This document shows, piece after piece, positions 1 to 45,847 of a DNA stretch of 64,000 nt. The translations under genes and the position numbers were made by a program. Positions within the stretch are counted from its first letter, which is position 1. Each line of letters opens with the position of its first letter. The stretch is from Candidatus Woesebacteria bacterium RIFCSPLOWO2_01_FULL_39_61 (lineage in GTDB: Bacteria > Patescibacteriota > Microgenomatia > UBA8517), in the NCBI GenBank assembly GCA_001793155.1, contig MGHI01000039.1:1119-65118 (forward strand). Reading direction: 5' to 3'. The notes below the pieces were generated by a model. It was given only the letters and a program-made list of their open reading frames with translations, was not told where the DNA came from and did no database searches.

Positions 1-22
1 GAGAGCACGAGTAAAAATTATA

Positions 23-553
23 ATGACAGAAGTAGAAAATCAATTCGAAAAAATAAATTCAGTAAAAGTAATTATTGAGAACAAGGAGGGAAAGATTTTG
101 CTTATTCAGGAATCCGCCGATGATGCTTGGATGCCTTTGCATTGGGGGCTTCCCGGCGGACGTCCGCAGGTTAAGGAATCTCTTTACAATACCTTGAAAA
201 GAAAAGTTCAGGAAGAGGTAGGGATAGAAATAGAACCCCTGGGATTTTATAAAATTGAAGAAGTACTGCACGATGATAAGACGGTAATGATGTATATAGC
301 AATAGCCCGTATGATTTTTGGACAGGAGGTAAAGGGTAAAATTAATGCTTATAAATGGGTAGGGATAGAGGATGTCGAGAATATGTACACTTCGGAGTTT
401 ACTGCCTTTTATGCAAAGAAACTTATTCTGGATTACCTTTCCGGTAACCGTGAATTTTTACCTTTCGATATCGTCGAAACTCAGCAGTATTACGATTTAG
501 ATCAAGATCCCGAATTTCAAAAGTGGTTGGAATCTGGAAAGAAGAAAAGTTAA
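23..553 (+). CDS. NUDIX hydrolase
   Basis: ORF of 176 aa with a visible Nudix box (GLPGGRPQVKESLYNTLKRKVQEEVGIE); ATG start. Confidence 0.8.
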   Translation: MTEVENQFEKINSVKVIIENKEGKILLIQESADDAWMPLHWGLPGGRPQVKESLYNTLKRKVQEEVGIEIEPLGFYKIEEVLHDDKTVMMYIAIARMIFGQEVKGKINAYKWVGIEDVENMYTSEFTAFYAKKLILDYLSGNREFLPFDIVETQQYYDLDQDPEFQKWLESGKKKS

Positions 554-590
554 TTAAGTGATTAATAGATTAAATTATTAAGTTCTGTTG

Positions 591-830
591 ATGGAAAATT
601 TTGATATTCAGGAACAACTTAAGTTAATACAGCTGTTCGGACATTTTGGTCTCTGGGGATATGTTTTAATAATCTTGGGCACAATTCTCTTGGCGATTTA
701 CAAAAAAAGAAAGGGAGGAAATTACAAACTGGTAATTATTCTTGGGGTAGGTTTGTTTTTCTTATATGGATTAATTTCAGGTTTTGTCGCAGTTTACTTA
801 ATCAGTCCGATTTATAACTTGGGGAATTAG
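591..830 (+). CDS. small membrane protein (2 predicted TM), unknown function
   Basis: ORF track 588..830 trimmed to the ATG; hydrophobic segments. Confidence 0.4.
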   Translation: MENFDIQEQLKLIQLFGHFGLWGYVLIILGTILLAIYKKRKGGNYKLVIILGVGLFFLYGLISGFVAVYLISPIYNLGN

Positions 831-912
831 AATTTTCTACCCAAAACTGATAGGCGAAATGCAAAGTTCAAAATTACAACCAAAAATTGTAAGGTGGATC
901 TGATGAAAATTT

Positions 913-1215
913 ATGAATAAGCTGATTTTACTGTTACTAGCTTTAGTTCTAACATTAATACCTTTAGAAATTTTCTATCAATTAGTATCGACTAAGCCGA
1001 TTTTACCCTTTTTCCAGATTATTACACTTTTTCTATTTGGAGTAATTACTTTTTTAGCGGTGTATGTTTTTTTAAATAAGATTTCAAACTACGTCCAGCT
1101 AAAAAAAGACACTCTAATTGTAAAGTTACTTAAGACAGTCTTTATTATTTTTGGCGTGCTTGTACTTTATTTTATGTTTGTTGGATTTCTAGGAGTTATG
1201 CTCCCAGCAGGTTGA
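913..1215 (+). CDS. small polytopic membrane protein, unknown function
   Basis: 100-aa ORF, strongly hydrophobic. Confidence 0.4.
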   Translation: MNKLILLLLALVLTLIPLEIFYQLVSTKPILPFFQIITLFLFGVITFLAVYVFLNKISNYVQLKKDTLIVKLLKTVFIIFGVLVLYFMFVGFLGVMLPAG

Positions 1216-1237
1216 TATGAAATAATCATTTTTAGTA

Positions 1238-1385
1238 ATGTTAAATCCGAAAGCAAAATTATCAGAAAAGATATTTTCGAAAGATATTGAGCAAATTCCC
1301 ACCAGAATTGGTTATAGAGAGGGGTTGGTGGAGGCTGGGAAGAAAGATGAGCGAGTTGTTGTACTCTCCGCAAATTTGATAAATT
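1238..1385 (+). pseudogene. diverged duplicate of the first ~45 codons of the transketolase C-subunit gene
   Basis: Translation MLNPKAKLSEKIFSKDIEQIPTRIGYREGLVEAGKKDERVVVLSANL aligns with the start of the 2521 ORF (MLNLQAKLSSKVFKEDIEQVPTRNGYGEGLIDAGEKDERVVVLSADL). The frame then runs into the DUF3800 ORF. The same TAATGTTAAAT junction occurs at both copies. Confidence 0.6.
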
Positions 1386-2015
1386 ATGACCGTTGCTTAT
1401 ATCGATGAGTCTGGGAACTTAGCTGACAAAAACCCATTTTTTATCGTTGCTATAGTTCCGATTGAAGATGAAAGACTTCCAAATCGAATTATTAAGAGAG
1501 TCCGTAGAATTTTGGGGAGGAGAAAAGGTAAAGTTGGTAAGGAATTAAAATTTACTAGTAGCTCTTCTAGATTAAGAGAATACTTAGTAAAACGCTTAGA
1601 ATCGGAGAATCTGTATTGTTATGTTTTTGTGGTAGATAAAATTGAGAGAAAAATTTCAGATACACCCGAAAATTATGGAGCAGTTCTGAATTGGGTCCTC
1701 AAGGAAGGATTTTCAGTGCATAATTGGGATAAAGTTGTAATAGATAGAAAATTTGATAAAGAACGGGATCAAAAAGAACTAGTTGAAATTCTAGCGAAAG
1801 AAAACATTCGTATTACTAAGGTAAAGTTTGCAGATAGTGTTTCGGAAGATGGTATAAAATTGGCAGATTTTGTAGCGGGTTTTTATGGACAGTTTTACAA
1901 TAAGAAAGCACCTTTACCTAAGCCGTTAAGGAGTATAGTAAGCGAAGAAAGGTTATCCTGGGCTTTAATAAAGCAAAAAGCAGTGGCACCCAAGGGATCC
2001 GACGGTCCCGATTAA
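1386..2015 (+). CDS. DUF3800-like protein
   Basis: N-terminal motif AYIDESG characteristic of DUF3800; 209 aa; the stop codon sits in the loop of a GC hairpin. Confidence 0.5.
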   Translation: MTVAYIDESGNLADKNPFFIVAIVPIEDERLPNRIIKRVRRILGRRKGKVGKELKFTSSSSRLREYLVKRLESENLYCYVFVVDKIERKISDTPENYGAVLNWVLKEGFSVHNWDKVVIDRKFDKERDQKELVEILAKENIRITKVKFADSVSEDGIKLADFVAGFYGQFYNKKAPLPKPLRSIVSEERLSWALIKQKAVAPKGSDGPD

Positions 2016-2254
2016 ATCGGGACTCCGGTTGGTCCTTCATTCCGAAGGACCGATCACACTTGGACTTACGCCAACTGCTTTTCGCAAAATTATAATAGCA
2101 AATTTTGACTAAAAATGCAACCTAAAGTAGAACAAAGTTCATTTCTGATTAGCCACGTACCGAACTTTGTTCTGGTACTGTGGTAAAGTTTAAAATTACT
2201 AGTAACTGTTCAGATTTACTGACACGAATTACTAATTAAAGTTGTATATAAAGT

Positions 2255-2521
2255 ATGTATACGATTCTAACTTACGGTTACGGTAAAGAACCAACATTTG
2301 TCGAGTACGCGTTTAAATATTTCTCCAAAAGAGGTACTTGGATTATTCCTCTAGGTATTTTTTTAGCCTTGTTGGGAGTCGCTGTTTATCGGATTCTTAA
2401 AAAAAAGAAAATTTCGCAATTGTCGAAACTTTTGCTGTTCTTGACTTTTTTTGTAACGGTCGCATGGCCTTTCTATGTATTAGGAAGTTATAACGAACCT
2501 AAGTTTAATTTGCTGGACTAA
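2255..2521 (+). CDS. small membrane protein; stop overlaps the tkt start (TAATG)
   Basis: 88-aa ORF with two hydrophobic helices; translationally coupled to the 2521 ORF. Confidence 0.45.
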   Translation: MYTILTYGYGKEPTFVEYAFKYFSKRGTWIIPLGIFLALLGVAVYRILKKKKISQLSKLLLFLTFFVTVAWPFYVLGSYNEPKFNLLD

Positions 2522-3516
2522 TGTTAAATTTACAAGCTAAATTATCAAGCAAAGTTTTTAAAGAAGATATTGAACAAGTTCCGACCAGAAATGGGTATGG
2601 CGAGGGACTAATCGATGCGGGGGAGAAAGACGAAAGGGTAGTTGTTTTGTCAGCTGATTTGAAAGAATCGACAAGATCGCAGATGTTTGAGGATGCGTTT
2701 CCTGAAAGGTTTATCGAGGTCGGAGTTGCCGAGCAGGGAATGGCGACAATTGCGGCAGGAATGGCAAACTACGGGAAGATTCCTTTCATTGCATCCTACG
2801 CTACTTTTTCTCCCGGACGTAATTGGGAACAGATAAGAACGACAATTGCTCTGAATAATGTACCTGTCAAAATTGCTGGTCACCATGCAGGGATTTCGGT
2901 CGGACCTGACGGGGCAACACACCAAGCACTTGAGGATATTGCACTGATGCGGGTTATGCCGAATATGATTGTGATTGCGCCTTGTGATGCAATTGAGGCG
3001 AAAAAGGCTACCTATGAAGCTGCTTTTAACGCTAAGCCTACCTACATGCGATTCGCCAGAGAAAAAACACCGGTTTTTACGACCGAGGATACTCCATTCA
3101 AAATCGGCCGAGCTGAAATTTTTTGGGAGTCTAAGAATCCCGAGGTTGCAATTATCGGCTACGGTCCACTGGTTTACGAGGTATTAATTGCAGCCAGAGA
3201 GCTTGCAAGGACGGACCTTGAAAGCATGGTTATTAATTGTCATACGATTAAACCCATCGATGAAGATACAATTATTTCTGCTGCTAGAAAATGTGGCGCG
3301 GTCGTAACAGTTGAGGAGCATCAAATTACAGGCGGATTGGGGGGGGCCGTTGCTGAAGTTTTAGCGAAAAATTATCCGGTTCCGATGGAATTTATAGGTA
3401 TGCCAAACCACTTCGGCGAGTCGGGTAGTCCTGATGAGCTATTAGAAAAATGGGGAATGAAAGCAAAAAACATCGTCGAAGCGGTTAAAAAGGTCATCAA
3501 AAGGAAAACTTCTTAA
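2521..3516 (+). CDS. transketolase, C-terminal subunit (pyrimidine-binding plus C-terminal domains)
   Basis: 331 aa; split-transketolase C-subunit pattern (GIAEQGM-like region, C-terminal domain); no N-subunit gene adjacent. Confidence 0.85.
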   Translation: MLNLQAKLSSKVFKEDIEQVPTRNGYGEGLIDAGEKDERVVVLSADLKESTRSQMFEDAFPERFIEVGVAEQGMATIAAGMANYGKIPFIASYATFSPGRNWEQIRTTIALNNVPVKIAGHHAGISVGPDGATHQALEDIALMRVMPNMIVIAPCDAIEAKKATYEAAFNAKPTYMRFAREKTPVFTTEDTPFKIGRAEIFWESKNPEVAIIGYGPLVYEVLIAARELARTDLESMVINCHTIKPIDEDTIISAARKCGAVVTVEEHQITGGLGGAVAEVLAKNYPVPMEFIGMPNHFGESGSPDELLEKWGMKAKNIVEAVKKVIKRKTS

Positions 3517-3973
3517 CACACTTCCCACCTGCGTCAGGAAAGTTTCCGTCTGATTTACAAGTATATCCTTCGGGGCAGGCAATTCCTGCAATTCCACCGC
3601 AGAATGCTCCTTCATCCGGATTTTGGGCACCTGAATTTGAAAGACAACTGGTAAGTTCTTCTGTTTGGCTCCAGCCACATTTTCCGTTGACTTGTCTTTC
3701 ACAAACTGCATTTTTATAACAAGCCGACTTGGGATCGAAAATACATATAGACACGCGTTCTTCTTGGGATGAATCAGAGCATAATTCACTGTTACAACCT
3801 CCAATAGTACATTTCCCGTCTCTATTGGTCTGTTTCATATTGCCAGTTTGATATGCAATAAATGCCGAAGTGCCAAATAAAAAGAACATTAAAACCAGGG
3901 TTAGAAATATCGGAAAAAACTTGGATGAATATAATGATGCTTTATTGAAACTTTTGTTGGTGTTATTAGTCAT
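3497..3973 (-). CDS. N-terminally anchored or secreted cysteine-rich protein (16 Cys), unknown function
   Basis: Signal/TM segment followed by a Cys-rich domain (CTIGGCNSELC...CGGIAGIACPEGYTCK); its 3' end overlaps the tkt stop convergently by 20 nt. Confidence 0.45.
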   Translation of the reverse strand: MTNNTNKSFNKASLYSSKFFPIFLTLVLMFFLFGTSAFIAYQTGNMKQTNRDGKCTIGGCNSELCSDSSQEERVSICIFDPKSACYKNAVCERQVNGKCGWSQTEELTSCLSNSGAQNPDEGAFCGGIAGIACPEGYTCKSDGNFPDAGGKCVKKFSF

Positions 3974-3983
3974 TTATCTTATC

Positions 3984-5180
3984 TTAATACATAAGTAAAT
4001 ATCTGATAATAAGGAAAGAATTAATCATAAAAAGGAAAAATATGCTCGTAAGTATAAATGCTAGGTTCACTTGTTTCATTAGTTTCTCGATAAAGTAGGC
4101 GAGACCAAAGGTAATTATTGGGTAAGTCGTTATCAGCATCCGAATACTATATGATCCTCCCTGATAATAGTCTCGCCACGAAGCGATTAGATAAAGTTGT
4201 ATTAAAAAATAGAAAATCCCCATAAAACTTATCAATTTTTGCTTTTTCCAAAATAAAAATAATCCAAATAGACCCAGAGCAATCGTAGGAGTTAGTATAA
4301 AAAGCCCGTTCTGGATGTTAAAAAGTACATAACTTATATGGGGTGAAAGAAATGTGAACCCATAACCCCAACCGTAAGGCGGAAAATAAAAGTCAAAAAA
4401 TATTTTCCAAAGATAGATTTGAGGAAGAAAGCCGAGGAGGATACCAGTAACAAGTAACAAGTAACAAGTAACAAGAATTTTTAGATGCTTTCTGAACTTA
4501 AAAAATATCGCGATAGCGGGAATTGTAAAAATAATAATATCCTGCGTTCTTATAGTTCCAGCAAGTCCCGAAAGAATCCCAAGTATAAAAACGTCGCCGA
4601 GCGTGAGGTTTTCTAGTTTAGTTGACAAATAATAGACCACAAGTGAAGAGATAAAAAAAGACACAGCGTGGGAATTTATTGGTTCGACGGCGATATAGAA
4701 TAGGAGATTTGTGGTTGCAAAGAGAATAAATGCTGCAAATAAGCTGCTTTGGTTTTTAAAATATTTTTTCAAAGTATGGTAGACAAAAAATAGACCTAGC
4801 ACACCGAGAATGATGTTTATTAACCCGACGGCAAATTGATAAGTGAGCTCCAGTCCTGTTCTTTGCAAAGTTATCAATCTAACGAGGTTATCGGTTAGCA
4901 AATACGGAAAATACCATAAAATGGCAGACCCTGGAGCAAAGGTGTTTATCGCCAGACCTCGCGAGTTAACTGATGGTTTTATACCCAAAAGTTCGAAATC
5001 GTTTACTAAATTTATATCGCGATCAAAAACCCAGGATCTTACGTAGGCATAATAAAATTTACCGTCGCCAAAAACTGCGTTTTTGGTAAAGATGGTATGA
5101 CCAATAAAGATTACTATCGAAAAAATAAATATATATGTAAAAAATTTTATTGTGGCAATTTGCTTAATAGCTTTTTCCAT
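3984..5180 (-). CDS. polytopic membrane protein, possible GT-C-fold glycosyltransferase (ArnT/PMT-like)
   Basis: 398 aa with about 11-12 hydrophobic helices; contains the in-frame (GTAACAA)x4 tract. Confidence 0.4.
   Translation of the reverse strand: MEKAIKQIATIKFFTYIFIFSIVIFIGHTIFTKNAVFGDGKFYYAYVRSWVFDRDINLVNDFELLGIKPSVNSRGLAINTFAPGSAILWYFPYLLTDNLVRLITLQRTGLELTYQFAVGLINIILGVLGLFFVYHTLKKYFKNQSSLFAAFILFATTNLLFYIAVEPINSHAVSFFISSLVVYYLSTKLENLTLGDVFILGILSGLAGTIRTQDIIIFTIPAIAIFFKFRKHLKILVTCYLLLVTGILLGFLPQIYLWKIFFDFYFPPYGWGYGFTFLSPHISYVLFNIQNGLFILTPTIALGLFGLFLFWKKQKLISFMGIFYFLIQLYLIASWRDYYQGGSYSIRMLITTYPIITFGLAYFIEKLMKQVNLAFILTSIFFLFMINSFLIIRYLLMY
4447..4475. repeat. heptanucleotide tandem tract (GTAACAA)x4 inside a CDS
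   Basis: Direct reading: gtaacaagtaacaagtaacaagtaacaag. Confidence 0.8.
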
Positions 5181-5300
5181 TTTTTAAAAAGATTTTTCTA
5201 AGAATTCTTTTTCCCAATATAAGCATATAAGTTTGTATTTAACAACTTAAGGGGTGTTGTCCTTTAAGACTAAGCGTGTTAAATTGGAATTTAGTTAATT

Positions 5301-6323
5301 ATGAACAAAGGGGTTTTAGAATCCACCGCGGAATTGCTCGTTAGTCCTGGAAAGGGGATTTTAGCAACAGATGCAACCGAAGGGACGATGGATAAAAGGA
5401 TGCAGGCTGTAGAAGTTGCCCCATCTCCAGAGCTTCGAAGGAAATTTAGAGAACTTCTTTTAACAACAAAAGACGCTTCCGAATTTATTAGCGGGGTGAT
5501 TTTAAATGACGAAATTATCAGACAAAAGACCTCTGGCGGCATTGATTTTGCAAAGTTGGTTGAAAATCAAGGGATGATTCCGGGAATTAAGGTTGACAAA
5601 AAGGCGAATGATATGGCCAATTTTCCTGGAGAAAAGATTGCAGAGGGACTCGATGGGCTGCGCGATAGATTTATCGAGTATAAAAATATGGGAGCGAGAT
5701 TTGCTAAATGGCGAGCAGTAATAACCATCGGTGAAGGGATACCGACAGATGTCTGTATTGAATCAAACGCTGAAAGTTTGGCGCGTTATGCAGCTTTAGC
5801 ACAAGAGGCAGATATCGTACCGATTGTTGAGCCCGAAGTTTTAATGGAAGGGAATCATGGGATCGGCCGATGCGAAGAAGTAACAAAGAAAGTGCTTAAA
5901 AGTGTTTTTAAGAAGCTTACGGACCACAGAATAGTCCTGGCTGGTATGCTTCTTAAACCTAACGTTGTTCATCCCGGAAAAGATAGTCAGGAAAAGGCGG
6001 ATAACGAAGTTGTGGCCGAAAAAACATTGAAAGTCTTGCACGAAACCGTACCCGAAGAAGTTCCAGGAATTCTGTTTCTTTCCGGAGGAGATTCCGCGCC
6101 GGAAATGACCCAACACCTTGATCTTATGAACGAAAAAGGATCCCATCCTTGGGAACTCGCATTTTCATTTGAACGCGCACTGGAGGGACCATCGCTTGAG
6201 ATTTGGAAAGGGAATGATGCCAATTGGGAAGCTGCGCAGAAAGAATTTTACAAAAGAGCAAGGTTAAATTCTTTAGCTCGGACGGGAGCTTATACAAAGG
6301 AGATGGAGGCTGAAAATGGATGA
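5301..6323 (+). CDS. fructose-bisphosphate aldolase, class I (eukaryotic type)
   Basis: Strong collinear match to muscle-type aldolase (GILATDAT.GT..KR, IVPIVEPEV, LLKPNVV). Confidence 0.9.
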   Translation: MNKGVLESTAELLVSPGKGILATDATEGTMDKRMQAVEVAPSPELRRKFRELLLTTKDASEFISGVILNDEIIRQKTSGGIDFAKLVENQGMIPGIKVDKKANDMANFPGEKIAEGLDGLRDRFIEYKNMGARFAKWRAVITIGEGIPTDVCIESNAESLARYAALAQEADIVPIVEPEVLMEGNHGIGRCEEVTKKVLKSVFKKLTDHRIVLAGMLLKPNVVHPGKDSQEKADNEVVAEKTLKVLHETVPEEVPGILFLSGGDSAPEMTQHLDLMNEKGSHPWELAFSFERALEGPSLEIWKGNDANWEAAQKEFYKRARLNSLARTGAYTKEMEAENG

Positions 6324-8542: not shown

Positions 8543-9619
8543 ATGGCACTTTTTAGTAAGAAAAATAAAGAAGATGAATATGAGGATGAAGAGGAGTTGG
8601 TCCCAAGGAGAAAATCTTTGAGAAACAGGGATTTTAAAGATTTAAAACCCGAAAACCGCAAGAAGAGAAAAGAACCTCCGAAACCGTGGGGAAAAACCGA
8701 AAGATTATTGGTGCTACTAGTTTTAATATTAACAGCCGGAACGTCTTCCTTTTTAGCCTTGCAAAGTAGGGGCTGGAAGCTGCCGGGACTTCCCAGGCTT
8801 AAGATTCCATCCATATCTATTCCCTTTTTAGGAGAAAAAACAATTATTATCGAGGGTGACAAAAAAAATCAGGGGATGAAAGAAAAAGCAACCGTTGCCT
8901 TTAAAAGTATGACAAAGGAACTTTCGGGAGTATATGGCCTTTACGTATTGAGGTTAGACGATGGATCAAATTATGGTGTTAACGAAAATGAGATTTTCCA
9001 AGCAGCCTCGCTTATCAAACTACCGGTAATATTTGCCATGTATAAGGAGGCGGAAGGAGGAAATATAGACCTGGATAACAAATACCGATTGAAAAGAACC
9101 GATAAGGTAGCGGGTTCGGGGAGCTTATATCAAAAATCCGAAGGGTATCTTATCACCTATAGAGAAATGGTGAGGCTAATGGGTAAACAGTCCGATAACA
9201 CAGCCTTTAATATTCTGGTAAAGCTTTTAGGTAAGGACAAAATTGAAAGTGTAATCAAAGAACTGGGAATGATCCAGACATCCTTAGATAAAAACGAGAC
9301 AACTCCGGAAGATGTTGGTATCTTTTTTGACAGACTCTATAACGGAAATCTGATTTCAGACGCTTCTACAAATGAAATCTTAGAAGATTTAACGGATACA
9401 ATATATGAGGATTGGCTTGTGGCGGGAATCCCAGGGGTGATCAGAGTTGCACACAAATACGGTCGTGAACTTCATATTGTTAATGACGCCGGAATTATTT
9501 TAAGCGATAAGCCATTTGTATTAGTAATTATGAGTAAGGGGATTGTTGAAAAAGAAGCAGATGAAATTTTCCCAGTAATTACACGAGCTGTTTACGAAAT
9601 TGAGACCGGCGGATTTTAA
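8543..9619 (+). CDS. membrane-anchored class A beta-lactamase/PBP-like serine hydrolase
   Basis: Charged N-terminus plus TM; SxxK (ASLIK), SDN (QSDNT) and KYG motifs. Confidence 0.55.
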   Translation: MALFSKKNKEDEYEDEEELVPRRKSLRNRDFKDLKPENRKKRKEPPKPWGKTERLLVLLVLILTAGTSSFLALQSRGWKLPGLPRLKIPSISIPFLGEKTIIIEGDKKNQGMKEKATVAFKSMTKELSGVYGLYVLRLDDGSNYGVNENEIFQAASLIKLPVIFAMYKEAEGGNIDLDNKYRLKRTDKVAGSGSLYQKSEGYLITYREMVRLMGKQSDNTAFNILVKLLGKDKIESVIKELGMIQTSLDKNETTPEDVGIFFDRLYNGNLISDASTNEILEDLTDTIYEDWLVAGIPGVIRVAHKYGRELHIVNDAGIILSDKPFVLVIMSKGIVEKEADEIFPVITRAVYEIETGGF

Positions 9620-12375
9620 TTGTCAAACAAAAACTTCCTCTTTTTGGGTTTTGGCTGGTCAAAAAAATGATACTGGATTTCCGGTTGATTATTTTTAACT
9701 TCTTCAGTAGGTTTGTTTTCTTCATCTTTTTTAAACCATTCAGGTGAACAAGCTTTTTGAGGAGCGTTTTCTTTGAGAAACCATTCGAGTCTGGTTGGGC
9801 ATCCATTACAAGAAAGAGTTCCCGTAATTGTGCAAATGGGAACTTGAACCAAATCTTCAGGAACGGTCCAGTCGTGATTTTCTTCAGTTTGTAATAAAGA
9901 ACTCATGATTTTATTAAATATCGGGGAAGCCCCTGTCACTCCAGATGCTATCCGGGCCATTTCTGAGTTATCGTTATTTCCGACCCAGGTAGCAACCAGG
10001 TATGTTTGGTTATATCCCAGTGTTAAATTGTCTCTAAGATTATTGCTTGTACCGGTTTTGACTGCAACTTCTTTATGATTCGGTATTACCAGGAGCGAGT
10101 TTGTTCCGAAGGCTGGCGTTCGAGCATTATTATCCTTAAGGATGTCCGTAATAATGTACGCGACCCTGGGATCGATAACCTTATTCCCGTCACACTTACT
10201 CGTTTCCTCAGAATTTGTACTTCCAGACGATGACGCATACGTTATGGCGATAATAGAAGCTTCACCTCTCCCGCAGAAATTTTCTTCTAAAACTTTGCCT
10301 TTATTATTTGTTATTTTAAGGATGTATTTTTCTTCCGGCTTTTTTCCGTAGTTAGCGATGGTTGCGTAAGCATAAGCCAAATCCAGCAGTTTCACTTCAC
10401 CGCCACCCAGAGTTAATGACAAACCGTAATTATCCGGATTATTCCAGGTTGTAATACCCATTTTTTGCCCCATTTCAATCATATTTTTTACACCGTATGA
10501 ATTTAATACTTTTACTGCAGGGACGTTTCTGGACTCTGCAAATGCGCTTCGCAGTGTCAAATTTCCCCGAAAACCTCCTTCATAATTTTTGGGAGTATAG
10601 GGAGGAAGACCGGGTATAAGGAAGGTAACGGGAGTATCCGGGATAATTGTTGCGGCGGTGTAACCATTTGAGAGTGCGTATGCATAGTTAACTATCTTAA
10701 TCGAGGACCCCGGTTGCCTTAAGGAAGTTGTTACGTTTACGTTACCGTCATTTTGAGTATCAAAATAATCTTTGGAACCTACCATTGCCAGAACTTCACC
10801 TGTTGCTGGAGAGATTACCACTGCTGCGCCGTTTCTAACATTTAATTTTGCGAGTTTATCAACTTCTTCTTTGACAACGGTTTCAGCGAGAATTTGAATG
10901 TTATAATCGAGTGTTGTAACTACATTTAATCCTCCTTTTTCAACCAACTCCTTGCCGTATGTTTCTTCCAGAAGTTCTCGGACAAACATTACAAAATGGG
11001 AAGCTTTAATGTCGGTTTTATTTTCGGCAAAAATAGGAACTTCCTTTTGGGTTTCTTCTTTCTGACTTTGTGTAATGAAACCGTTTGTATGCATGAGGTT
11101 TAAGACCTCATTTTTTCTGTCGATTGCGGCTTGAGGATTTGGCCCGAAGGGTGAATACTGGGTCGGACTTTTTGGAAGTCCTGCAAGTATCGCCGCTTCG
11201 TTAAGAGTCAGAGAACCTACATCTTTATTGAAATACGTTCTTGCCGCCTCCTCGATTCCGTACGCCGTACCGCCGTAAGAAACCTCGTTTAGGTACATTT
11301 CTAATATTTCATTTTTTGAATAAGTCATTTCAACAATTACGGCCAACGTAATCTCTCTTAATTTTCTGATCAGAGTTTTTTCAGAAGAGAGGAGCGCGTT
11401 TTTTACCAGTTGTTGGGTAATTGTTGAGCCTCCGGTGAGTTCTCCTTGGCGCCAATTTTTAAGAGCGGCCCGGGTAATTCCCCGTATGGAAAAACCGGGG
11501 TGCGAGTAAAACTCTGCGTCTTCAATAGCTAAAGTGGCCAGTCTTACATGAAGCGGTATGGAATTAAGTTCTACCGGCGTTCTATTCTTATCATCGTATA
11601 TAGTGTAAAGAAGTATGCCGTTTCTGTCATATATTTTGGTAGAGACGTCAACATTTCTTTTAGTAAGCTCTTGCGCAGTGGGTAAATCTCTGAGTATAAA
11701 CCTCCAGAATAAAAATCCCGACAAAATAGTTAAAAGAACTGTTATTAGAAAACTAAAAAGGATTATTTTAAGAAGAGCTAATTTTGTTATTCTTACCTTA
11801 ACTTTAGTCTTTGGTTTGGTTAAAAAGATAGGAATTAATCGCAGGCGGACTTTTAAAAGGTTTATAGACTTTTCTGTATATAGGTAAGAGCGTTTAGAAA
11901 GATTTGCCGTCTGTTTAATTAAGACAAAAACTTTGGTAGTTTTTAATAAAAGCCTTTGGCCGAAATTCTTTGAGCTTATTGATACTTTTAAAAGAAAACC
12001 TTTAAGTAGAGTAATTAATTGCGGGGAAGCTTTAAAGATATCGCCTTGTTTTTTGAGTGATAATTTTTTTTCAAAAAAGAATCTGGTTTTTTTTAAGCTC
12101 GAATATATTCGCGCCAAATATTTTTTATATGAAGATATTTTCTTAGATGCTGAATTAAAAAAAGAATTAAATATAAAGGTTACGGTGCCGAACAGTCTCT
12201 TGATGAAGTATCCTGTAGCATGTAAGCCGAGAATTACGGCAAGAAATATATAAGTTAAGACGGTAAAAAAAGGCTTTCCAATAAGAGCAAGCAGCCTGAG
12301 AGCGAATTTTAGGCTGTTTTTTACTTTCGTTGGGGCAAGGTTAACATCTGGTTTTTGATTTGGTAGTTTAACCAC
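9616..12375 (-). CDS. class A penicillin-binding protein (PBP1A-type transglycosylase/transpeptidase) with a lysine-rich N-terminal extension
   Basis: GT51 motifs (EDAEFYSHPGF, GGSTITQQLVKN, RKLRE) and TPase motifs (SSIK, SRN, KTGTSN). Confidence 0.85.
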   Translation of the reverse strand: MVKLPNQKPDVNLAPTKVKNSLKFALRLLALIGKPFFTVLTYIFLAVILGLHATGYFIKRLFGTVTFIFNSFFNSASKKISSYKKYLARIYSSLKKTRFFFEKKLSLKKQGDIFKASPQLITLLKGFLLKVSISSKNFGQRLLLKTTKVFVLIKQTANLSKRSYLYTEKSINLLKVRLRLIPIFLTKPKTKVKVRITKLALLKIILFSFLITVLLTILSGFLFWRFILRDLPTAQELTKRNVDVSTKIYDRNGILLYTIYDDKNRTPVELNSIPLHVRLATLAIEDAEFYSHPGFSIRGITRAALKNWRQGELTGGSTITQQLVKNALLSSEKTLIRKLREITLAVIVEMTYSKNEILEMYLNEVSYGGTAYGIEEAARTYFNKDVGSLTLNEAAILAGLPKSPTQYSPFGPNPQAAIDRKNEVLNLMHTNGFITQSQKEETQKEVPIFAENKTDIKASHFVMFVRELLEETYGKELVEKGGLNVVTTLDYNIQILAETVVKEEVDKLAKLNVRNGAAVVISPATGEVLAMVGSKDYFDTQNDGNVNVTTSLRQPGSSIKIVNYAYALSNGYTAATIIPDTPVTFLIPGLPPYTPKNYEGGFRGNLTLRSAFAESRNVPAVKVLNSYGVKNMIEMGQKMGITTWNNPDNYGLSLTLGGGEVKLLDLAYAYATIANYGKKPEEKYILKITNNKGKVLEENFCGRGEASIIAITYASSSGSTNSEETSKCDGNKVIDPRVAYIITDILKDNNARTPAFGTNSLLVIPNHKEVAVKTGTSNNLRDNLTLGYNQTYLVATWVGNNDNSEMARIASGVTGASPIFNKIMSSLLQTEENHDWTVPEDLVQVPICTITGTLSCNGCPTRLEWFLKENAPQKACSPEWFKKDEENKPTEEVKNNQPEIQYHFFDQPKPKKRKFLFDN

Positions 12376-13626: not shown

Positions 13627-15969
13627 TTATTCTACTACCTGATTATTCGTCGGTTCAATAGAAAGAGGATGCTTTATTGTCGCCGAGTGCGACGAGGCGG
13701 CAATTGTGCAGTCTAGGCATACGAAAGTATCCAAAGGATCGTATAAAACATGCTGTTGCCTGACCTCAATATTTTCGGGCGGAGTGCTCTCATTTATAAA
13801 TCCGCCGGTAGTTCTGTCAAAATGAACATCCTGAACCCCTCCCTTAATAATTAGGGGAGTTGTATTTTCCAGGAAATAGTCAAAACGGGTTTGACAACCT
13901 ACTGGACCAGGGGCCGGGTTATCTTCCGGACCGGATGGTATTATGCCGGTATCTATACAAACATTTGCTCCGATAACGTCTTCTGGTTGTTTAGGCCAAG
14001 CATGTTCTTTATCTAACTCGCTATAACTTCCTATCTCCGCCTTATCTAAAACTTCCTTCATAATTGAATTCCAGATTGGTGATGCTCCGGAAACTCCGGA
14101 TACGGCGCGCGTCATCGGAGAATTATCATTATTTCCTACCCAGGTGACAACCAATGCCTGACTGGTATAGCCAATGGTCCAGTTGTCCCGAAGATCGTTG
14201 GTCGTACCGGTTTTTACTGATACCTCGGGATGGCCTTTAACGTTTAGAAATGAACTCGTTCCGAAAGCAGCAGACCTGGCATTGTTGTCGTGGAGGATAT
14301 GCGAGATTATAAAGGTGACAGCCGGGGAAAGAACCTTATCTCCTTTTAAATTAATTTCCTCGGGTTTAACTTCTTCAATAACCTTTCCCCTCCAGTCCTC
14401 GACCTTGAGAATAGAAATAAGCGGCTGTTTAATACCGGAATTTGCTAGAACACCAAAGCCAACCGCCATGTCAAAGGGTCTTACTTCACCGCCGCCAAGA
14501 GTTAAGGATAAACCGTAATCAGATGGATCCCTAAAAGTAGTAATCCCCATTTCTTTGGCAAAGTCGATAAAGTTTTCTATACCATTTAGCGCCAATACTC
14601 GAACAGCCGGAATATTGTATGAATTTCCAAGGGCAAATCTTACCTGTACCGATCCGTGGAAGTTCCCGTCGTAGTTTCTGGGACAATAATCAGCTTGTCC
14701 TGCTACTTTAAAACAGGTAGGTACATCAGCCAGGGGAGTTGATGCGGTTATTTTCTTGTCTCGCAAAGCGAGAGCATAATTTAAGGGCTTAATCGATGAG
14801 CCTGGTTGTCTTTGAGCAAAAATAATGTTTACTTTCCCATCCTCATCTTGGGCAAAATAATCCTTGGATCCGACCATTGCCAAAATCTCTCCCGATCCCG
14901 GCCGGGTTACGAGCGCAGCCCCGTTTCCCACCTTTTGTTTACTTAACTTTGCAACCTCCGTTGCAACCTTCTCTTCGGCGTAATCCTGCAGGTCCAAATC
15001 GAGTGTTGTAGTTACCCTTAGTCCTCCTTTTTCAACGACTGCATCCGAATATTTTTCCGCAAGTTGTTCCTTGACCCAAAGTGCAAAGTGGGGAGCCTTT
15101 AATTTTTCGGGTTCGGCATATTTTAATTCTTCCTCGCTGGCCTTATCGGCTTCTTCCTGTGAGATATATCCGTCAGTAACCATAAGTCTAAGCACCGTCT
15201 CTTGCCTTCCTTTTGCAAGTTCCGGGCGAGATCCGAAGGGAGAAAAACGTGAGGGTGCTGCCGGTAAACCTGCCAAAAGAGCCGCTTCTGCCAATGTTAA
15301 ATCACTAGCCTCCTTGCCAAAATAGGTTTCTGCCGCTGCACCGATTCCGTAGGCGGTCCCGCCATAGGGGATTTGATTTAAATAAAGTTCAAGTATTTTA
15401 TCTTTGGAATATATAGATTCGACCAAAAGAGTTAAAACAAATTCCCTTAACTTTCTTCGGACAGTCCGCTCGGGCGTTAAAAGTACATTTTTAACCAGTT
15501 GTTGGGTCAGGGTTGAACCTCCTTGGAGTTTACCCTTGAAAATAGTGTTATAGGCAGCACGTACGATTCCCGTATATGAGACGCCGTAATGCTTGTAAAA
15601 ATCTTTATCTTCAATCGAGATTGTTGCTTTTTTTACATAATCCGGTATTCCGTCTAACTTGATGGGGGTACTTTTTTTGTCCGCATAAATTTCATATATA
15701 ATTTTGCCGTTTCTGTCAAAAAGTTTTGTCGAGACGGGAACCTGGGACGTTGCAAGCTTGGTTGGTAGCGGAATTGCCCAAAAAAGCCACAGTCCGAAGC
15801 TAACCAGTATTCCGAAGAAAAATATTTTTTTCTTTCTCCTTTCACTCGCAAAAAAGTTTCTGATCTTCGAAAAAGCTCCGATTTTTACCACCCTCGTTTG
15901 CCTTTTTCTTTGGGGTTTAATAGCAGATTTTTTAACTCCCCTGGTTTTCTTTATGTTTTTCTTTATCAT
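13627..15969 (-). CDS. class A penicillin-binding protein (PBP1A-type), second paralog
   Basis: Same GT51 and TPase motif set (EDKDFYKHYGV, GGSTLTQQLVKN, SSIK, KTGTTN). Confidence 0.85.
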   Translation of the reverse strand: MIKKNIKKTRGVKKSAIKPQRKRQTRVVKIGAFSKIRNFFASERRKKKIFFFGILVSFGLWLFWAIPLPTKLATSQVPVSTKLFDRNGKIIYEIYADKKSTPIKLDGIPDYVKKATISIEDKDFYKHYGVSYTGIVRAAYNTIFKGKLQGGSTLTQQLVKNVLLTPERTVRRKLREFVLTLLVESIYSKDKILELYLNQIPYGGTAYGIGAAAETYFGKEASDLTLAEAALLAGLPAAPSRFSPFGSRPELAKGRQETVLRLMVTDGYISQEEADKASEEELKYAEPEKLKAPHFALWVKEQLAEKYSDAVVEKGGLRVTTTLDLDLQDYAEEKVATEVAKLSKQKVGNGAALVTRPGSGEILAMVGSKDYFAQDEDGKVNIIFAQRQPGSSIKPLNYALALRDKKITASTPLADVPTCFKVAGQADYCPRNYDGNFHGSVQVRFALGNSYNIPAVRVLALNGIENFIDFAKEMGITTFRDPSDYGLSLTLGGGEVRPFDMAVGFGVLANSGIKQPLISILKVEDWRGKVIEEVKPEEINLKGDKVLSPAVTFIISHILHDNNARSAAFGTSSFLNVKGHPEVSVKTGTTNDLRDNWTIGYTSQALVVTWVGNNDNSPMTRAVSGVSGASPIWNSIMKEVLDKAEIGSYSELDKEHAWPKQPEDVIGANVCIDTGIIPSGPEDNPAPGPVGCQTRFDYFLENTTPLIIKGGVQDVHFDRTTGGFINESTPPENIEVRQQHVLYDPLDTFVCLDCTIAASSHSATIKHPLSIEPTNNQVVE

Positions 15970-19394: not shown

Positions 19395-22088
19395 ATGATA
19401 AAAGCAAAAAGCAAAAACAAGAAAAAAAACGGAAGCAAAAATCTTAGTCTTGAGAGTTTGCAATTTCCTTCATACGAAGAAATAAAGAAAGATATTTTCA
19501 CGAAGATCGGCGAAAAACCTAGCTTACCCGATGATCTTCCCGCCGGAGTATGGACAGAACAATCTCTCAAGGTTTTAACGGAGAGATATTTAAAAAAAGA
19601 CGATCTTGGGAATATTATTGAGACCCCGGAGGAGATGTGTTGGCGTGTAGCATGGGATATCGCATCAGCCGAAGTTCGTTGGGGAAAAGGTAAGACCGAA
19701 ATTACAAAGATTGCAAGAGAGTTTTATCAACTTTTAGTCTCTCACGATTTTTTGCCTAATTCGCCCACCTTAATGAATGCCGGTACTGATAATGGGCTTC
19801 AATACTCTGCTTGTTTTGTGTTACCGGTGGAAGACTCTCTTGTCGGAATTTTTGACGCTATAAAATACCAGGCGCTTATCCACCAAACTGGAGGGGGAAC
19901 AGGGTTTGCCTTCAGTCGTTTAAGACCTCAAGGGTCGGTGGTCCGCTCGAGTCGCGGAACCGCGTCGGGTCCTGTTTCTTTTATGCGCATATTTGATGCG
20001 GCGACCAATGAAATTAAGCAGGGAGGTAAACGTCGCGGTGCCAATATGGGAATATTGAGAGTTGACCACCCCGATATTATGGAATTTATCCATTGTAAAG
20101 AAGAAGGTGGGATAACCAACTTTAACATTTCCGTTGCAGTAACAGATGTGTTTATGGAAGCGTATAAGAGAGGTTCGGACTACGACCTAATTGATCCCCA
20201 TAACGGGAAAGTGGTGGGAAAACTGAATGCCCGAAGCGTTTTTGATGAAATAGCCGACGGAGCTTGGAAAACAGGAGACCCAGGATTGGTATTTATCGAT
20301 AGAGTTAATGCGGGTAGTGCAAATCCGGTCCCATCCCTAGGTCCGGTGGAATCCACAAACCCCTGCGGCGAACAACCGCTTTACCCTTATGATTCCTGCA
20401 ATTTGGGAAGTATATTTCTAACATATTTTGTAAAAGCTACGGACGGTAAGAAAGAAGTTGATTGGGAAAAATTGAGGAAAGCAACCCGATTAAGTACCAG
20501 ATTTTTGGATAATGTCATCGAAATGAATCCATATCCGTTGGAGTCGATAAGAAAGATTTCACTGGCAATACGAAGGATCGGACTCGGGGTTGGCGGCTGG
20601 GCAGATATGCTAATTGAACTTGGTATTCCTTACGACAGTCGGGAAGCGTTAAAGCTCGGAGAAAAAATAATGAAAGTAATCCAGGAAGAGGCCGTTGATG
20701 CCTCGAAAAATCTGGCGAAAGAAAGAGGTCCTTTCCCAATGTGGCCGGTAAGTACATATAAAAACCAAGAACCCCGTAGAAATTCTACAGTAACAACTAT
20801 TGCTCCAACGGGTACAATTTCGATTATCGCCGGCGCATCAAGCGGAATTGAGCCTATTTTTGCTTTAGCCTATCAGCATATTGTCAAGGATAAGCATCTT
20901 GATCGGACACTTTCTTTTATTAATCCGAAATTTGAGGAAGTTGCAAAGCAAAGAGGTTTTTGGTCAGAGGGAATAAAGGATAAGGTCGTAGAACACGGAG
21001 TCATAAGAGGCATTAATGAAGTTCCTGAAGATGTTAGGCAAGTATTTGGAACAGCCCATGAGATTCATCACGACTGGCATATAAAACACCAGGCTGTCTT
21101 TCAGAAATATACAGAGAATGCCGTGAGTAAAACTATAAATATGGCAAATAGCATTAAGGTGAATGACATTAAGAAAGCCTACTTACTTGCCTGGGAAACG
21201 GACTGCAAGGGCATAACGGTTTTCAGAGACGGTTGTAAAGAGACCCAGGTTCTTAATTTGGGGGTAAAGGATAAGGAAAAAGATGTTTTTCAGGAAGCAA
21301 AAGACCCGACACTTATTCGGCCTTTTGTAGTTCGGGGATCGACGTACCGCCTGGAGACTCCCGTAGGCAGAGCATTTGTTACCATTAATCAGGACGAAAG
21401 CGGAGAGCCTTTGGAAGTCTTTATCAACGTCGGAAAGGCGGGAAGTGATGTTACGGCTATGGCTGAGGCATTGGGTCGAACCATTTCCACCTCTTTAAGG
21501 TTCAGAGGACACCTCGCTCCCAGAGAAAAAGCTAAAGAGATTGCCTTACAGCTTTCGGGAATCGGTGGAAGGCGGTCGGTTGGGTTTGGTTCGAGAAAAA
21601 TTCTATCTTTGCCAGATGCCGTTGCCGCAGCAATCTCGACACATTTCGGTTTTAAGATAAACGGCTATCAAGCCGGGTTTGCGGGTGATTCAAGTTTTCT
21701 AAATCTTAAAAAGGCAATCGACGGTAGTGGGAAAATTTTAACTGTTGAGGCCCAGTCAGATTCGGCTGGAGCTGTTATGTCGGCACAAATTTCCGGCGTG
21801 ATGCCGGATACCTCCCCCCTGGGGAGTGATGACCACACAATGGCTTCGGCTGAGTCTCACTTGGCCTCAACCCAGTCAGACTCGACCTCAACCGAGTTGG
21901 ATTCTTCAACGGCCTTGTTTGAATCGACTCCGACAAACGGTAACGGATTAGAAGAATCCTTTACCACCCAGCTTTCATTGACTAGTCCAAAAGTATCTGG
22001 CGATATTTGTCCCTCCTGCGGCGCTTCAGCGCTTGTAAATGAGGAAGGCTGCTCCAAGTGCCACGTTTGTGGCTATTCTGAATGCTAA
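19395..22088 (+). CDS. nrdJ: class II (adenosylcobalamin-dependent) ribonucleotide reductase with an S/T-rich linker and C-terminal zinc ribbon
   Basis: NPCGEQPL active-site region, large RNR barrel, C-terminal CPSCG...CSKCHVCG. Confidence 0.85.
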   Translation: MIKAKSKNKKKNGSKNLSLESLQFPSYEEIKKDIFTKIGEKPSLPDDLPAGVWTEQSLKVLTERYLKKDDLGNIIETPEEMCWRVAWDIASAEVRWGKGKTEITKIAREFYQLLVSHDFLPNSPTLMNAGTDNGLQYSACFVLPVEDSLVGIFDAIKYQALIHQTGGGTGFAFSRLRPQGSVVRSSRGTASGPVSFMRIFDAATNEIKQGGKRRGANMGILRVDHPDIMEFIHCKEEGGITNFNISVAVTDVFMEAYKRGSDYDLIDPHNGKVVGKLNARSVFDEIADGAWKTGDPGLVFIDRVNAGSANPVPSLGPVESTNPCGEQPLYPYDSCNLGSIFLTYFVKATDGKKEVDWEKLRKATRLSTRFLDNVIEMNPYPLESIRKISLAIRRIGLGVGGWADMLIELGIPYDSREALKLGEKIMKVIQEEAVDASKNLAKERGPFPMWPVSTYKNQEPRRNSTVTTIAPTGTISIIAGASSGIEPIFALAYQHIVKDKHLDRTLSFINPKFEEVAKQRGFWSEGIKDKVVEHGVIRGINEVPEDVRQVFGTAHEIHHDWHIKHQAVFQKYTENAVSKTINMANSIKVNDIKKAYLLAWETDCKGITVFRDGCKETQVLNLGVKDKEKDVFQEAKDPTLIRPFVVRGSTYRLETPVGRAFVTINQDESGEPLEVFINVGKAGSDVTAMAEALGRTISTSLRFRGHLAPREKAKEIALQLSGIGGRRSVGFGSRKILSLPDAVAAAISTHFGFKINGYQAGFAGDSSFLNLKKAIDGSGKILTVEAQSDSAGAVMSAQISGVMPDTSPLGSDDHTMASAESHLASTQSDSTSTELDSSTALFESTPTNGNGLEESFTTQLSLTSPKVSGDICPSCGASALVNEEGCSKCHVCGYSEC

Positions 22089-45771: not shown

Positions 45772-45847
45772 TGTCACAAAGTCAAGATTCAAAAATACTC
45801 TCTCTCTGGTCGCGGAACCTACTTATGTCCCTTATGTCAGAAATAGA
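45772..45847 (+). pseudogene. diverged duplicate of the fpg 3' end (zinc-finger fragment)
   Basis: Frame translation CHKVKIQKYSLSGRGTYLCPLCQK* versus the Fpg C-terminus CHKAKIQKYFLSGRGTYFCPICQI; coordinates within about 1 nt. Confidence 0.6.

Follow-up and report, generated by a model that had tools for sequence, protein, structure and literature searches.

Within the window analysed here, a stretch of 64,000 nucleotides (nt) from contig MGHI01000039.1 of Candidatus Woesebacteria bacterium RIFCSPLOWO2_01_FULL_39_61, the intact gene for the transketolase C subunit, tktC, is preceded by a second, diverged copy of its own 5′ end, and between the two copies lie a gene of the DUF3800 family and, on the opposite strand, the gene of a structured small RNA (sRNA). 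We refer to the DUF3800 gene together with the sRNA and its putative promoter as the cassette, to the window's own locus as W, and to the loci fetched for comparison by L-numbers (a window position equals the L001 position minus 8615). The local order runs tktN (the transketolase N-subunit gene), a NUDIX gene, two small membrane open reading frames (ORFs) of 80 and 100 amino acids (aa), the tktC fragment, the DUF3800 gene, the sRNA on the minus strand, an 88-aa ORF and tktC, with the features placed as follows.

1-14, plus strand: 3′ end of tktN (L001 7790-8629 by tblastn mapping; the remainder lies upstream of the window)
23-553, plus strand: NUDIX gene (Pfam NUDIX, E=6e-14)
588-830, plus strand: small membrane ORF, 80 aa
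913-1215, plus strand: small membrane ORF, 100 aa
1236-1379, plus strand: left direct repeat, the displaced tktC 5′ end with its start context and 47 codons, read as ORF 1238-1408
1386-2015, plus strand: DUF3800 gene, 209 aa (Pfam PF12686)
1970-2087, minus strand: structured sRNA gene (Rfam DUF3800-III match at 1978-2080)
2092-2120, minus strand: putative promoter of the sRNA, which forms the cassette's conserved right end; boxes positionally conserved
2115-2521, plus strand: lineage-specific filler between cassette and tktC, a 23-codon ORF from the cassette's ATG and then the 88-aa ORF
2255-2521, plus strand: 88-aa membrane ORF, its stop overlapping the tktC ATG
2519-2662, plus strand: right direct repeat, the 5′ end of the functional tktC
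2521-3516, plus strand: intact tktC, 331 aa (Pfam Transket_pyr, E=2e-44; Transketolase_C, E=4e-27)

The displaced tktC start and its cassette

Self-comparison of the window with blastn aligned positions 1236-1379 with 2519-2662 at 73% identity over 145 nt (E=8e-15), the strongest internal repeat in the 64-kb window, and a second repeat search gave the same pair at 72% over 144 nt; at the protein level the two starts are 72% identical across 47 codons. The repeat takes in the TAATG start context, with TAATGTTAAAT common to both copies, as well as 47 tktC codons, and the fragment ORF (1238-1408) extends 23 nt past the DUF3800 ATG at 1386 in another frame. The original prediction, made from the sequence alone, had described a copy of about 70% identity, a shared start context and a fragment running directly into the DUF3800 gene, and nucleotide alignment bears out all three, with 47 codons rather than the 45 then counted. 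Its statement that the transketolase N-subunit gene is missing and the gene order disturbed proved to be an artefact of the window's edge, since the last 14 nt of tktN occupy window positions 1-14. The 88-aa gene that it regarded as coupled to tktC does exist as an ORF with the stop/ATG overlap described, but is not conserved in L007 and L179, where other ORFs occupy that place and one ORF spans from the cassette ATG to the tktC start. No significant homology linked the 88-aa ORF to the 80-aa or 100-aa ORFs or to the 107-aa ORF of L007. A longer original duplication that would have included the 80-aa ORF, with the 88-aa ORF as its diverged copy, was considered and rejected, the similarity being marginal (E=0.025) and nothing comparable occurring in L007.

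The left copy is shown to be the displaced original gene start, and the right copy that of the working gene. The left copy stands directly 3′ of an 80-aa ORF, a position held by the intact tktC in L024; in W its residues 24, 27 and 46 are I, R and N, against N/Q/D, G and D in all orthologues, and in L179 the corresponding fragment contains two frameshifts. Native upstream context, substitutions at invariant residues and frameshifts identify the left copy as a relic, and the frameshifted fragment of L179 further shows that the fragment peptide is dispensable.

The arrangement was compared with 80 tkt loci from related genomes, whose tktC is 63-81% identical to that of W, the closest belonging to genomes named Woesebacteria. 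In these loci tktN usually abuts or overlaps tktC, and otherwise assorted small genes lie between the two. Only one of the 80 has the layout of W, namely L007 (Woesebacteria RIFCSPLOWO2_01_FULL_39_10), in which tktN is followed by an 80-aa ORF, a 49-codon fragment, a DUF3800 gene 79-80% identical to that of W, the RNA on the minus strand and tktC. A third lineage, L179, has a DUF3800 gene 69% identical to that of W and the same breakpoint (..GATTTGACGGAAT followed by ATG), so that in W, L007 and L179 alike tktC is broken after ..DL(T)E and the DUF3800 ATG comes 1-6 nt on. Alignment of W with L007 delimits a conserved unit from the DUF3800 ATG to about position 2125, with no similarity from 2125 to the tktC start. 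Since tktN adjoins tktC and the cassette is missing in most of the 80 genomes, the cassette is an insertion, as the original prediction had read it, and the region is the scar of an old one; the arrangement is not ancestral.

Insertions of many kinds gather at the tktN-tktC junction, which is a general hotspot for them both in Woesebacteria and in further genomes of the candidate phyla radiation (CPR). From L005 to L084 the gap between the two genes ranges from -8 to 3941 nt and is filled by NUDIX genes, small membrane ORFs, a recurrent Cys-rich membrane protein (MHGNCKCPHHW...), CBS-domain proteins, a GIY-YIG protein in L043 or an RHH+PIN+Fic set in L036; a NUDIX gene or the 80-aa ORF occupies it in L005, L006, L017, L018, L020 and L024. 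Small bAvd/23S_rRNA_IVP-family and PIN genes are likewise scattered among the glycolytic and pentose-phosphate genes of relatives (examples at L085 526-888, L088 7821-8180, L093 8020-8379 and L178 1955-2329), another sign that these operons accept small selfish inserts.

The DUF3800 product matches Pfam PF12686 with 43.4 bits (cut-off 21, E=7e-11) over residues 4-167, above the gathering score of the family, which is the sole Pfam family found on the cassette protein. None of the homing-endonuclease families (LAGLIDADG, GIY-YIG, HNH, PD-(D/E)xK, EDxHD) matched it, and PADLOC reported weak matches to PDC-M04A and retron-VII DUF3800. A confident AlphaFold2 model (mean predicted local distance difference test score, pLDDT, 85.5) predicts a type-2 RNase H-like (RNase HII-like) fold; the N-terminal DE motif and the RNase H2-like fold described for the DUF3800 family (PMC7736814, PMC10910872) are both present. 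Across 32 homologues D7, E8, E53, K85 and D161 are invariant; as regards the C-terminal QxxD motif of the family, D161 stands within a conserved (K/N/S)(L/I/V)AD context but has no conserved Q ahead of it, and retron type VII proteins likewise lack this Q (PMC7736814). Between W and L007 the ratio of non-synonymous to synonymous substitution rates (dN/dS) is 0.12, which indicates that the gene is under purifying selection; this ratio, the conserved acidic residues, the predicted fold and the covariation in the RNA (below) mark the cassette as functional.

On the minus strand, cmscan matched the full-length Rfam model DUF3800-III (RF02962) at 2080-1978 with 45.6 bits against a gathering threshold of 43.8 (E=1.9e-7); the same model scored 58.8 bits in L108 and, just under the cut-off, 40.7 bits on the minus strand of L007. 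Scores and features alike thus place the gene in Pfam DUF3800 and the RNA in Rfam DUF3800-III. The RNA is convergent with the DUF3800 gene and overlaps the final 38 nt of its ORF, and the predicted transcript, with ends near 2085 and 1970, would be antisense to the stop and the ~13 DUF3800 codons before it, its 3′ end formed by the closing helix and then a U-run. Its minimum free energy is -61 kcal/mol (z=-7.7 against shuffles), compensatory changes keep the pairing in 18 of the 31 predicted pairs among ten sequences, an invariant U-G pair is feasible on the minus strand only, and between W and L007 the RNA zone is conserved at ~93% as against ~80% for the coding sequence (estimated from the alignment). 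The two GC hairpins that the original prediction had noticed after the DUF3800 stop are present, but they are parts of this one minus-strand RNA; as terminators or attachment (att) sites they were rejected, belonging as they do to an opposite-strand sRNA gene.

A promoter for the sRNA can be inferred in W from a putative -35 box TTGCAT (plus strand ATGCAA, 2115-2120), a spacer of 17 nt and a TG-n-TATTAT -10 box (plus strand 2092-2097), and an outward-facing ATG lies at 2115, inside the -35 box at the right end of the cassette. Boxes of this kind (TTGACT or TTGCAT, 16-17 nt, a TATAAT-like hexamer) appear at a fixed distance in eight of the ten aligned loci; the remaining two rows of the alignment (L091, L103) end before the -35 region, and the TTGACT box of L091 was seen separately.

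The window self-comparison returned other repeats as well. The diverged pair 9965-11441 and 14120-15530 falls in two large minus-strand ORFs (9616-12375 and 13627-15969, of 919 and 780 aa), the 919-aa product carrying Transgly and Transpeptidase domains of penicillin-binding-protein type, and looks like ordinary paralogy. Two more short diverged direct repeats, 77-78% identical, pair 43064-43137 with 45772-45845 and 20355-20417 with 23224-23288.

DUF3800 cassettes in related genomes

A search across 5.8 billion proteins returned just 34 homologues of the DUF3800 protein, and a metagenome scan supplied 80 additional DUF3800 loci; phage and plasmid collections, and the PDB searched by sequence, held nothing relevant. 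The fetched loci show that the W cassette is one of a wider set of DUF3800 cassettes in CPR bacteria, which lie directly ahead of gene starts and are often bracketed by 40-150-bp direct repeats of target-gene sequence. When the 400 nt 5′ of each gene were compared with the 1.5 kb 3′ of it and direct repeats of at least 50 nt were counted, 15 of 47 non-redundant DUF3800 ORFs turned out to be flanked by repeats, against 5 of 126 other ORFs of 150-300 aa from the same loci (Fisher p=2.6e-6), one of the five repeat-positive controls being itself DUF3800-like. For the majority of the 15, a distance of 0-60 nt separates the end of the left copy from the DUF3800 start, and in about ten the repeats consist of host-gene sequence, from five kinds of target gene (among them tktC, atpG, surface-protein starts and one gene 3′ end). 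The other positives involve the 3′ module of a neighbouring cassette (L121, as also in L135) or flanking paralogous genes (L096, L123), while L129 and L151 are unassigned. The length of the flanking repeat varies by locus, from 43 to 145 nt.

Several of these loci illustrate the arrangement. L140 reads atpA, atpG codons 1-35, a DUF3800 gene, atpG codons 1-35 again, a second DUF3800-like gene and the intact atpG. In L165, dinB is followed by about 38 codons of a surface-protein start, a DUF3800 gene and a surface-protein gene, and in L144 the last 43 nt of the upstream gene recur after the cassette. L159 and L177 carry three different DUF3800-family genes in series ahead of a surface-protein gene, with the same N-terminal membrane-anchor coding segment copied before each of them. 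Comparison of L159 1485-3701 with L177 1963-4201 shows the three subfamilies in circularly permuted order (2,3,1 and 1,2,3), a sign that unequal crossing-over between the copies of the target fragment may rearrange the array.

In every cassette that we read, the ORF stop lies inside the structured RNA, followed by a reversed -10 box, ~17 nt and a reversed -35 box (TGTCAA or AGTCAA). In most of them a start codon comes next: it overlaps the -35 box as ATGTCAA in L165, L159, L177 and L116 and as ATGCAA in W, L007 and L179, and follows the box at a distance of 0-6 nt in the L085-type loci, L140, L151 and L155. No start codon stands at the box in L121, L135 and L144. Genes for NYN (PIN-like RNase) proteins at L135 1451-2080 and at L121 2004-2730 and 1143-1400 carry the same 3′ promoter module with a simple hairpin replacing the structured RNA, and L121 also has a 5′ fragment of the NYN gene, so the cassette design may not be specific to DUF3800.

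Two further RNA arrangements accompany genes of the family. Many DUF3800 genes are followed by a different RNA-like module that is shorter and reads, in plus-strand letters, ..CTGA ACCGG-hairpin-CC CATCC AGG... (L165 6636-6700, L135 3013-3090, L121 3509-3580, L144 6630-6710, L140 2185-2262 and L159 3695-3765, as well as L116, L151 and L155). Its inner stem covaries (GGTGC/GCACC, GGCGC/GCGCC, GATGC/GCATC, GACGC/GCGTC, GTGGC/GCCAC) and includes a U-G pair feasible on the minus strand only. Rfam gave no match at the gathering threshold at nine loci, and none at E<=1 for L159; the module may represent an undescribed DUF3800-associated motif. In L129 (and L130-L134), positions 1-5800 hold a ribosomal RNA operon with a 16S group I intron and its LAGLIDADG ORF, HicAB and two DUF3800-family genes; a DUF3800-IX RNA lies on the minus strand at 4435-4507 (60.8 bits), and perfect direct repeats of 59-79 bp surround these elements.

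The closest relatives of the W cassette keep to a single site. All DUF3800 homologues at least 54% identical and with readable context lie between tktN and tktC (L007, L085, L087, L088, L091, L093, L095, L103, L179 and L180), and the next-closest, at most 41% identical, stand at other places wherever their context was read. At the tkt site the DUF3800 ATG follows the tktN stop by 1-9 nt in L085, L087, L091, L093 and L095 and by 26 nt in L180; L088 has a small membrane ORF ahead of the DUF3800 gene, and L103 a gap of ~216 nt with no flanking repeat detected. In L085 and L087, tktC or a small ORF begins at the right end of the cassette.

Host and cassette were compared over nine tkt-lineage loci. 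Pairwise identities of tktC and tktN are correlated with r=0.90, those of DUF3800 and tktC with r=0.55. The host genes of L103 are 85-90% identical to those of L088, L091 and L093, its DUF3800 only 52-59% identical to theirs, and the DUF3800 genes of L088 and L093 are 89% identical to each other. L087 has a clade-B host and a clade-A-like DUF3800, closest to those of W and L007; neither host tree makes sisters of these two, and the loci more nearly related to them (L005, L006, L010, L013 and L019) are without the cassette. The discordance of these trees, which are neighbour-joining trees without support values, and the identity figures support the view that cassettes have been replaced or exchanged horizontally at a fixed site. 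Fixed site, patchy distribution and a phylogeny discordant with that of the host (by the same unsupported trees) together form a pattern of homing type.

Origin and persistence of the cassette

The two copies of a target start differ in an informative way. In L007 the proportion of differences is 0.59 at synonymous sites (pS) and 0.035 at non-synonymous sites (pN), and in L140 the two fragments show 8 and 14 nucleotide differences from atpG, none of which changes an amino acid; in W, pN is 0.108 between the fragment and the L005 orthologue and 0.117 between the intact copy and the same orthologue. Because the copies differ chiefly at synonymous sites, local duplication followed by decay is disfavoured, and the simplest reading would be that each copy belonged to a working gene of a different genome during the divergence. 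One of two courses could have led there: either one copy came with the cassette, or the fragment was repeatedly overwritten by recombination with cassette-free alleles. In L165, a recent insertion, the right copy has a different N-terminus, starting at the cassette's own ATG, and the left copy with its upstream DNA is 94% identical to the cassette-free relative L181 up to the breakpoint.

The original prediction had proposed an integrated element that carried a replacement copy, and had advised a search for a recombinase elsewhere that recognises the site. The proposal fits in part, since differences mainly at synonymous sites would place the origin of one copy in another lineage, as with a replacement copy; a recombinase in or near the unit and an identical att core are absent. 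No tyrosine or serine recombinase is encoded within the 1.28-kb unit or by the flanking genes, the DUF3800 gene and the 88-aa ORF being the only ORFs between the repeats, and no identical att-type core was found, the W copies being 71-73% identical with a longest identical run of 11 nt that lies at the start context and not at the breakpoint. Features of a transposon or insertion sequence were also lacking, in that the unit has neither conserved inverted termini nor a short target duplication of fixed length. A perfect 10-nt inverted match, CATTTTTAGT / ACTAAAAATG, joins 1227-1236, just outside the left repeat, with 2108-2117 at the right end of the cassette. As a candidate terminal repeat it was set aside, such a match being at chance level for an AT-rich region and not conserved in L007.

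Taken together, the data lead us to favour, with a probability of roughly 0.7, the old insertion of a selfish, probably toxin-antitoxin-like and horizontally exchanged cassette. What entered tktC, at codon 47-49, is an RNase H-like DUF3800 gene with its convergent DUF3800-III sRNA and the putative sRNA promoter. The left copy no longer makes transketolase and would probably serve as a translated leader ending on the DUF3800 ATG, which might allow translational coupling; more generally, DUF3800 could be translated by coupling to whichever ORF ends at its start, and the right end of the cassette would supply or abut the start of the next gene. Spread might occur by homologous recombination through the conserved flanks or, alternatively, through circles that take part of the target start along on excision and re-integrate by homology, a route that would reproduce the observed topology. 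The most likely reason for the persistence of the cassette would be addiction or defence, with DUF3800 acting as a nuclease toxin restrained by the antisense sRNA. That the protein might be harmful without its sRNA is suggested by the convergent antisense layout, by the NYN look-alikes and by the defence and mobile contexts of DUF3800 (PMC13594972). The locus shows the layout of an RNA antitoxin, namely a convergent sRNA antisense to the 3′ end of the ORF, with promoter-like sequence that is positionally conserved, the promoter itself being inferred.

Several observations weigh against the old insertion of an exchanged selfish cassette. Among the nine tkt-lineage loci compared, six are without a duplicated fragment, as is L180; with most tkt-site cassettes lacking it, the scar is not obligatory. 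Neither a recombinase nor conserved terminal inverted repeats came to light, and no isogenic filled/empty pair turned up for tktC; the L165 and L181 alleles differ over a multi-kb variable block and do not form a clean pair of this kind either. Both W copies are closest to L005, and segments of 141 nt do not show which of them, if either, is foreign. A simple consensus promoter scan did not call the W sRNA promoter. Finally, W and L007 are similarly close in DUF3800 (80%) and in tktC (77%), and plain vertical descent with repeated loss inside clade A could likewise account for these sequences.

The alternative that survives best, although we consider it unlikely, is active homing. DUF3800, with or without the sRNA, would cut cassette-free tktC near codon 47, repair would copy the cassette in, and the divergent second gene start would keep the gene working and immune to further cutting. 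Such a process would agree with the occupation of the same site in many lineages, the patchy distribution and the discordant trees, with the nuclease-type predicted fold, with the two or three different DUF3800 subfamilies placed serially at one site, each with its fragment (L140, L159, L177), and with the synonymous differences between copies, which resemble those of recoded immune alleles. However, type-2 RNase H enzymes cut RNA in RNA-DNA hybrids and are not known for double-strand DNA breaks; the sRNA as an RNA guide was examined and rejected, since in W, L007 and L085 the sRNA region has no stretch of 9 nt or longer that is complementary to the tktC breakpoint. Furthermore, the occurrence of divergent DUF3800 subfamilies at the same codon argues against protein-encoded site recognition, and most tkt-lineage cassettes have no fragment at all.

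A classical integrative element, in which a site-specific recombinase would have inserted a circular element at an att site in the 5′ end of tktC while the element carried the replacement end, appears very improbable. The target-sequence direct repeats that bracket the insert would fit it, and a Campbell-type topology would account for a left copy that stops where the cassette starts and a right copy placed beyond its right end. The lack of a tyrosine or serine recombinase in the 1.28-kb unit or its neighbours and of an identical core, with copies 71-85% identical throughout, speaks against it, as do the size of the unit, far below that of known integrative elements, and the variation of the repeat between loci over 43-145 nt.

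We give slightly less credence still to the absence of any mobile element, with a tandem duplication of the tktC start by replication slippage that decayed in place and DUF3800 as an ordinary operon resident. The arrangement is indeed old and common to three lineages, and DUF3800 has diverged between W and L007 roughly at the host rate; but the repeats are enriched around DUF3800 (15/47 against 5/126) and derive from the host at four other kinds of target, their mainly synonymous differences are unlike those of a gene/pseudogene pair, the DUF3800 and host trees disagree, and the gene is absent from most relatives.

An assembly or binning artefact, a chimeric contig joining two tktC strain variants, is scarcely credible, since the same fragment-DUF3800-RNA layout recurs, free of N runs, in at least 23 contigs that NCBI, ENA and JGI assemblies produced independently, and in other species as well. 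A false duplicate does exist in the related locus L046, a public metagenome-assembled genome, where an apparent second tktC fragment (1731-1830) was rejected because it reflects a gap in the scaffold, with sequence duplicated on both sides of a run of N.

A bolder reading, which we put forward only tentatively and think rather doubtful, would see in the DUF3800-sRNA cassettes and the look-alike NYN-sRNA cassettes an unrecognised class of small CPR mobile elements with several properties jointly: they would insert directly at gene starts and provide a start codon from within the promoter of their sRNA, they would create or bring along a second copy of the first 15-50 target codons and so let essential genes survive, and the RNase H-like protein and the structured sRNA would act in insertion or homing, e.g. 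through an RNA-DNA hybrid at the target. If such a class existed, the DUF3800 RNA motifs would be RNA components of mobile-element machinery, and if the protein-RNA pair indeed acted in insertion, this would constitute a new RNA-assisted mobility mechanism.

Comparison with known systems

The locus and its relatives point to a selfish, addiction-type or mobile cassette, and the spare piece of the neighbouring gene at four other kinds of target provides a first clue to the nature of DUF3800 modules. CPR genomes appear to tolerate insertions in core operons such as tkt and atp because a spare gene start is kept. In its outcome the cassette resembles gene-end-integrating elements that keep the gene whole; yet it fails the defining tests of integrase islands and homing genes, because there is no recombinase, no att core and no known endonuclease family.

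Free-standing homing endonuclease genes bring a duplicate gene end with them, as in the Allomyces mitochondrial atp6 element. The present cassettes are similar in that a selfish gene sits at a gene end with a displaced native fragment, a divergent working copy and a patchily occupied, fixed site. Homing genes, however, encode recognised endonucleases (GIY-YIG, LAGLIDADG) and duplicate 3′ ends, whereas here the protein is RNase HII-like, an antisense sRNA is present and it is the 5′ end that is duplicated. Genomic islands and prophages also integrate at gene ends with a replacement end (tRNA, tmRNA and protein-gene att sites). Target direct repeats around the insert and an intact target gene are common to both; unlike such islands, the cassette has no integrase and no identical core, its conserved unit measures ~0.75 kb and its repeats are long and divergent.

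Antisense RNAs that converge on a toxin gene and overlap its 3′ end are known from type I toxin-antitoxin loci such as txpA/RatA of Bacillus subtilis, and the LDR/QUAD repeat loci of E. coli occur in tandem. The DUF3800 cassettes share with them the convergent 3′-overlapping sRNA, the compact promoter-bearing units and the tandem repetition (L159, L177). Type I toxins, however, are small hydrophobic peptides, in contrast to the 209-aa RNase H-like protein encoded here, and the sRNA, highly structured and with covarying helices, seems better suited to binding a protein, as in type III systems, than to acting purely as antisense.

DUF3800 has been linked to mobile elements, to retron VII and to Cas12a2/a3 and Cas13 loci (PMC7736814, PMC10910872, PMC13594972). 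With the retron VII and CRISPR-associated proteins described there, the W protein has in common the domain with its N-terminal DE motif, the link to a non-coding nucleic acid and the defence or mobile contexts; unlike them, it stands alone in a sugar-metabolism operon of a CPR bacterium, with no reverse transcriptase, Cas gene or TPR domain. DUF3800 proteins recur beside retrons and CRISPR effectors; the anatomy described here is concrete and testable.

The nearest precedent is the work of Weinberg et al. 2017 (PMC5737381), from which eleven DUF3800-associated RNA motifs are known. These motifs adjoin DUF3800-family genes, DUF3800-I on either strand, and several of the RNAs have terminators after them; the paper offers no functional hypothesis. 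The literature on DUF3800 that we searched held no description of a convergent RNA across the stop codon, of flanking scars, of a promoter/start-codon end or of a tkt-site lineage with discordant trees, and the broader cassette pattern has apparently not been noticed before. As in the DUF3800-III of Weinberg et al., the protein and the RNA at the present locus belong to the same two families and are adjacent; beyond that description, the loci compared here reveal the overlap of the RNA with the stop codon, a -35 box beside the next start, repeats derived from the target, and a fixed tkt site with discordant trees.

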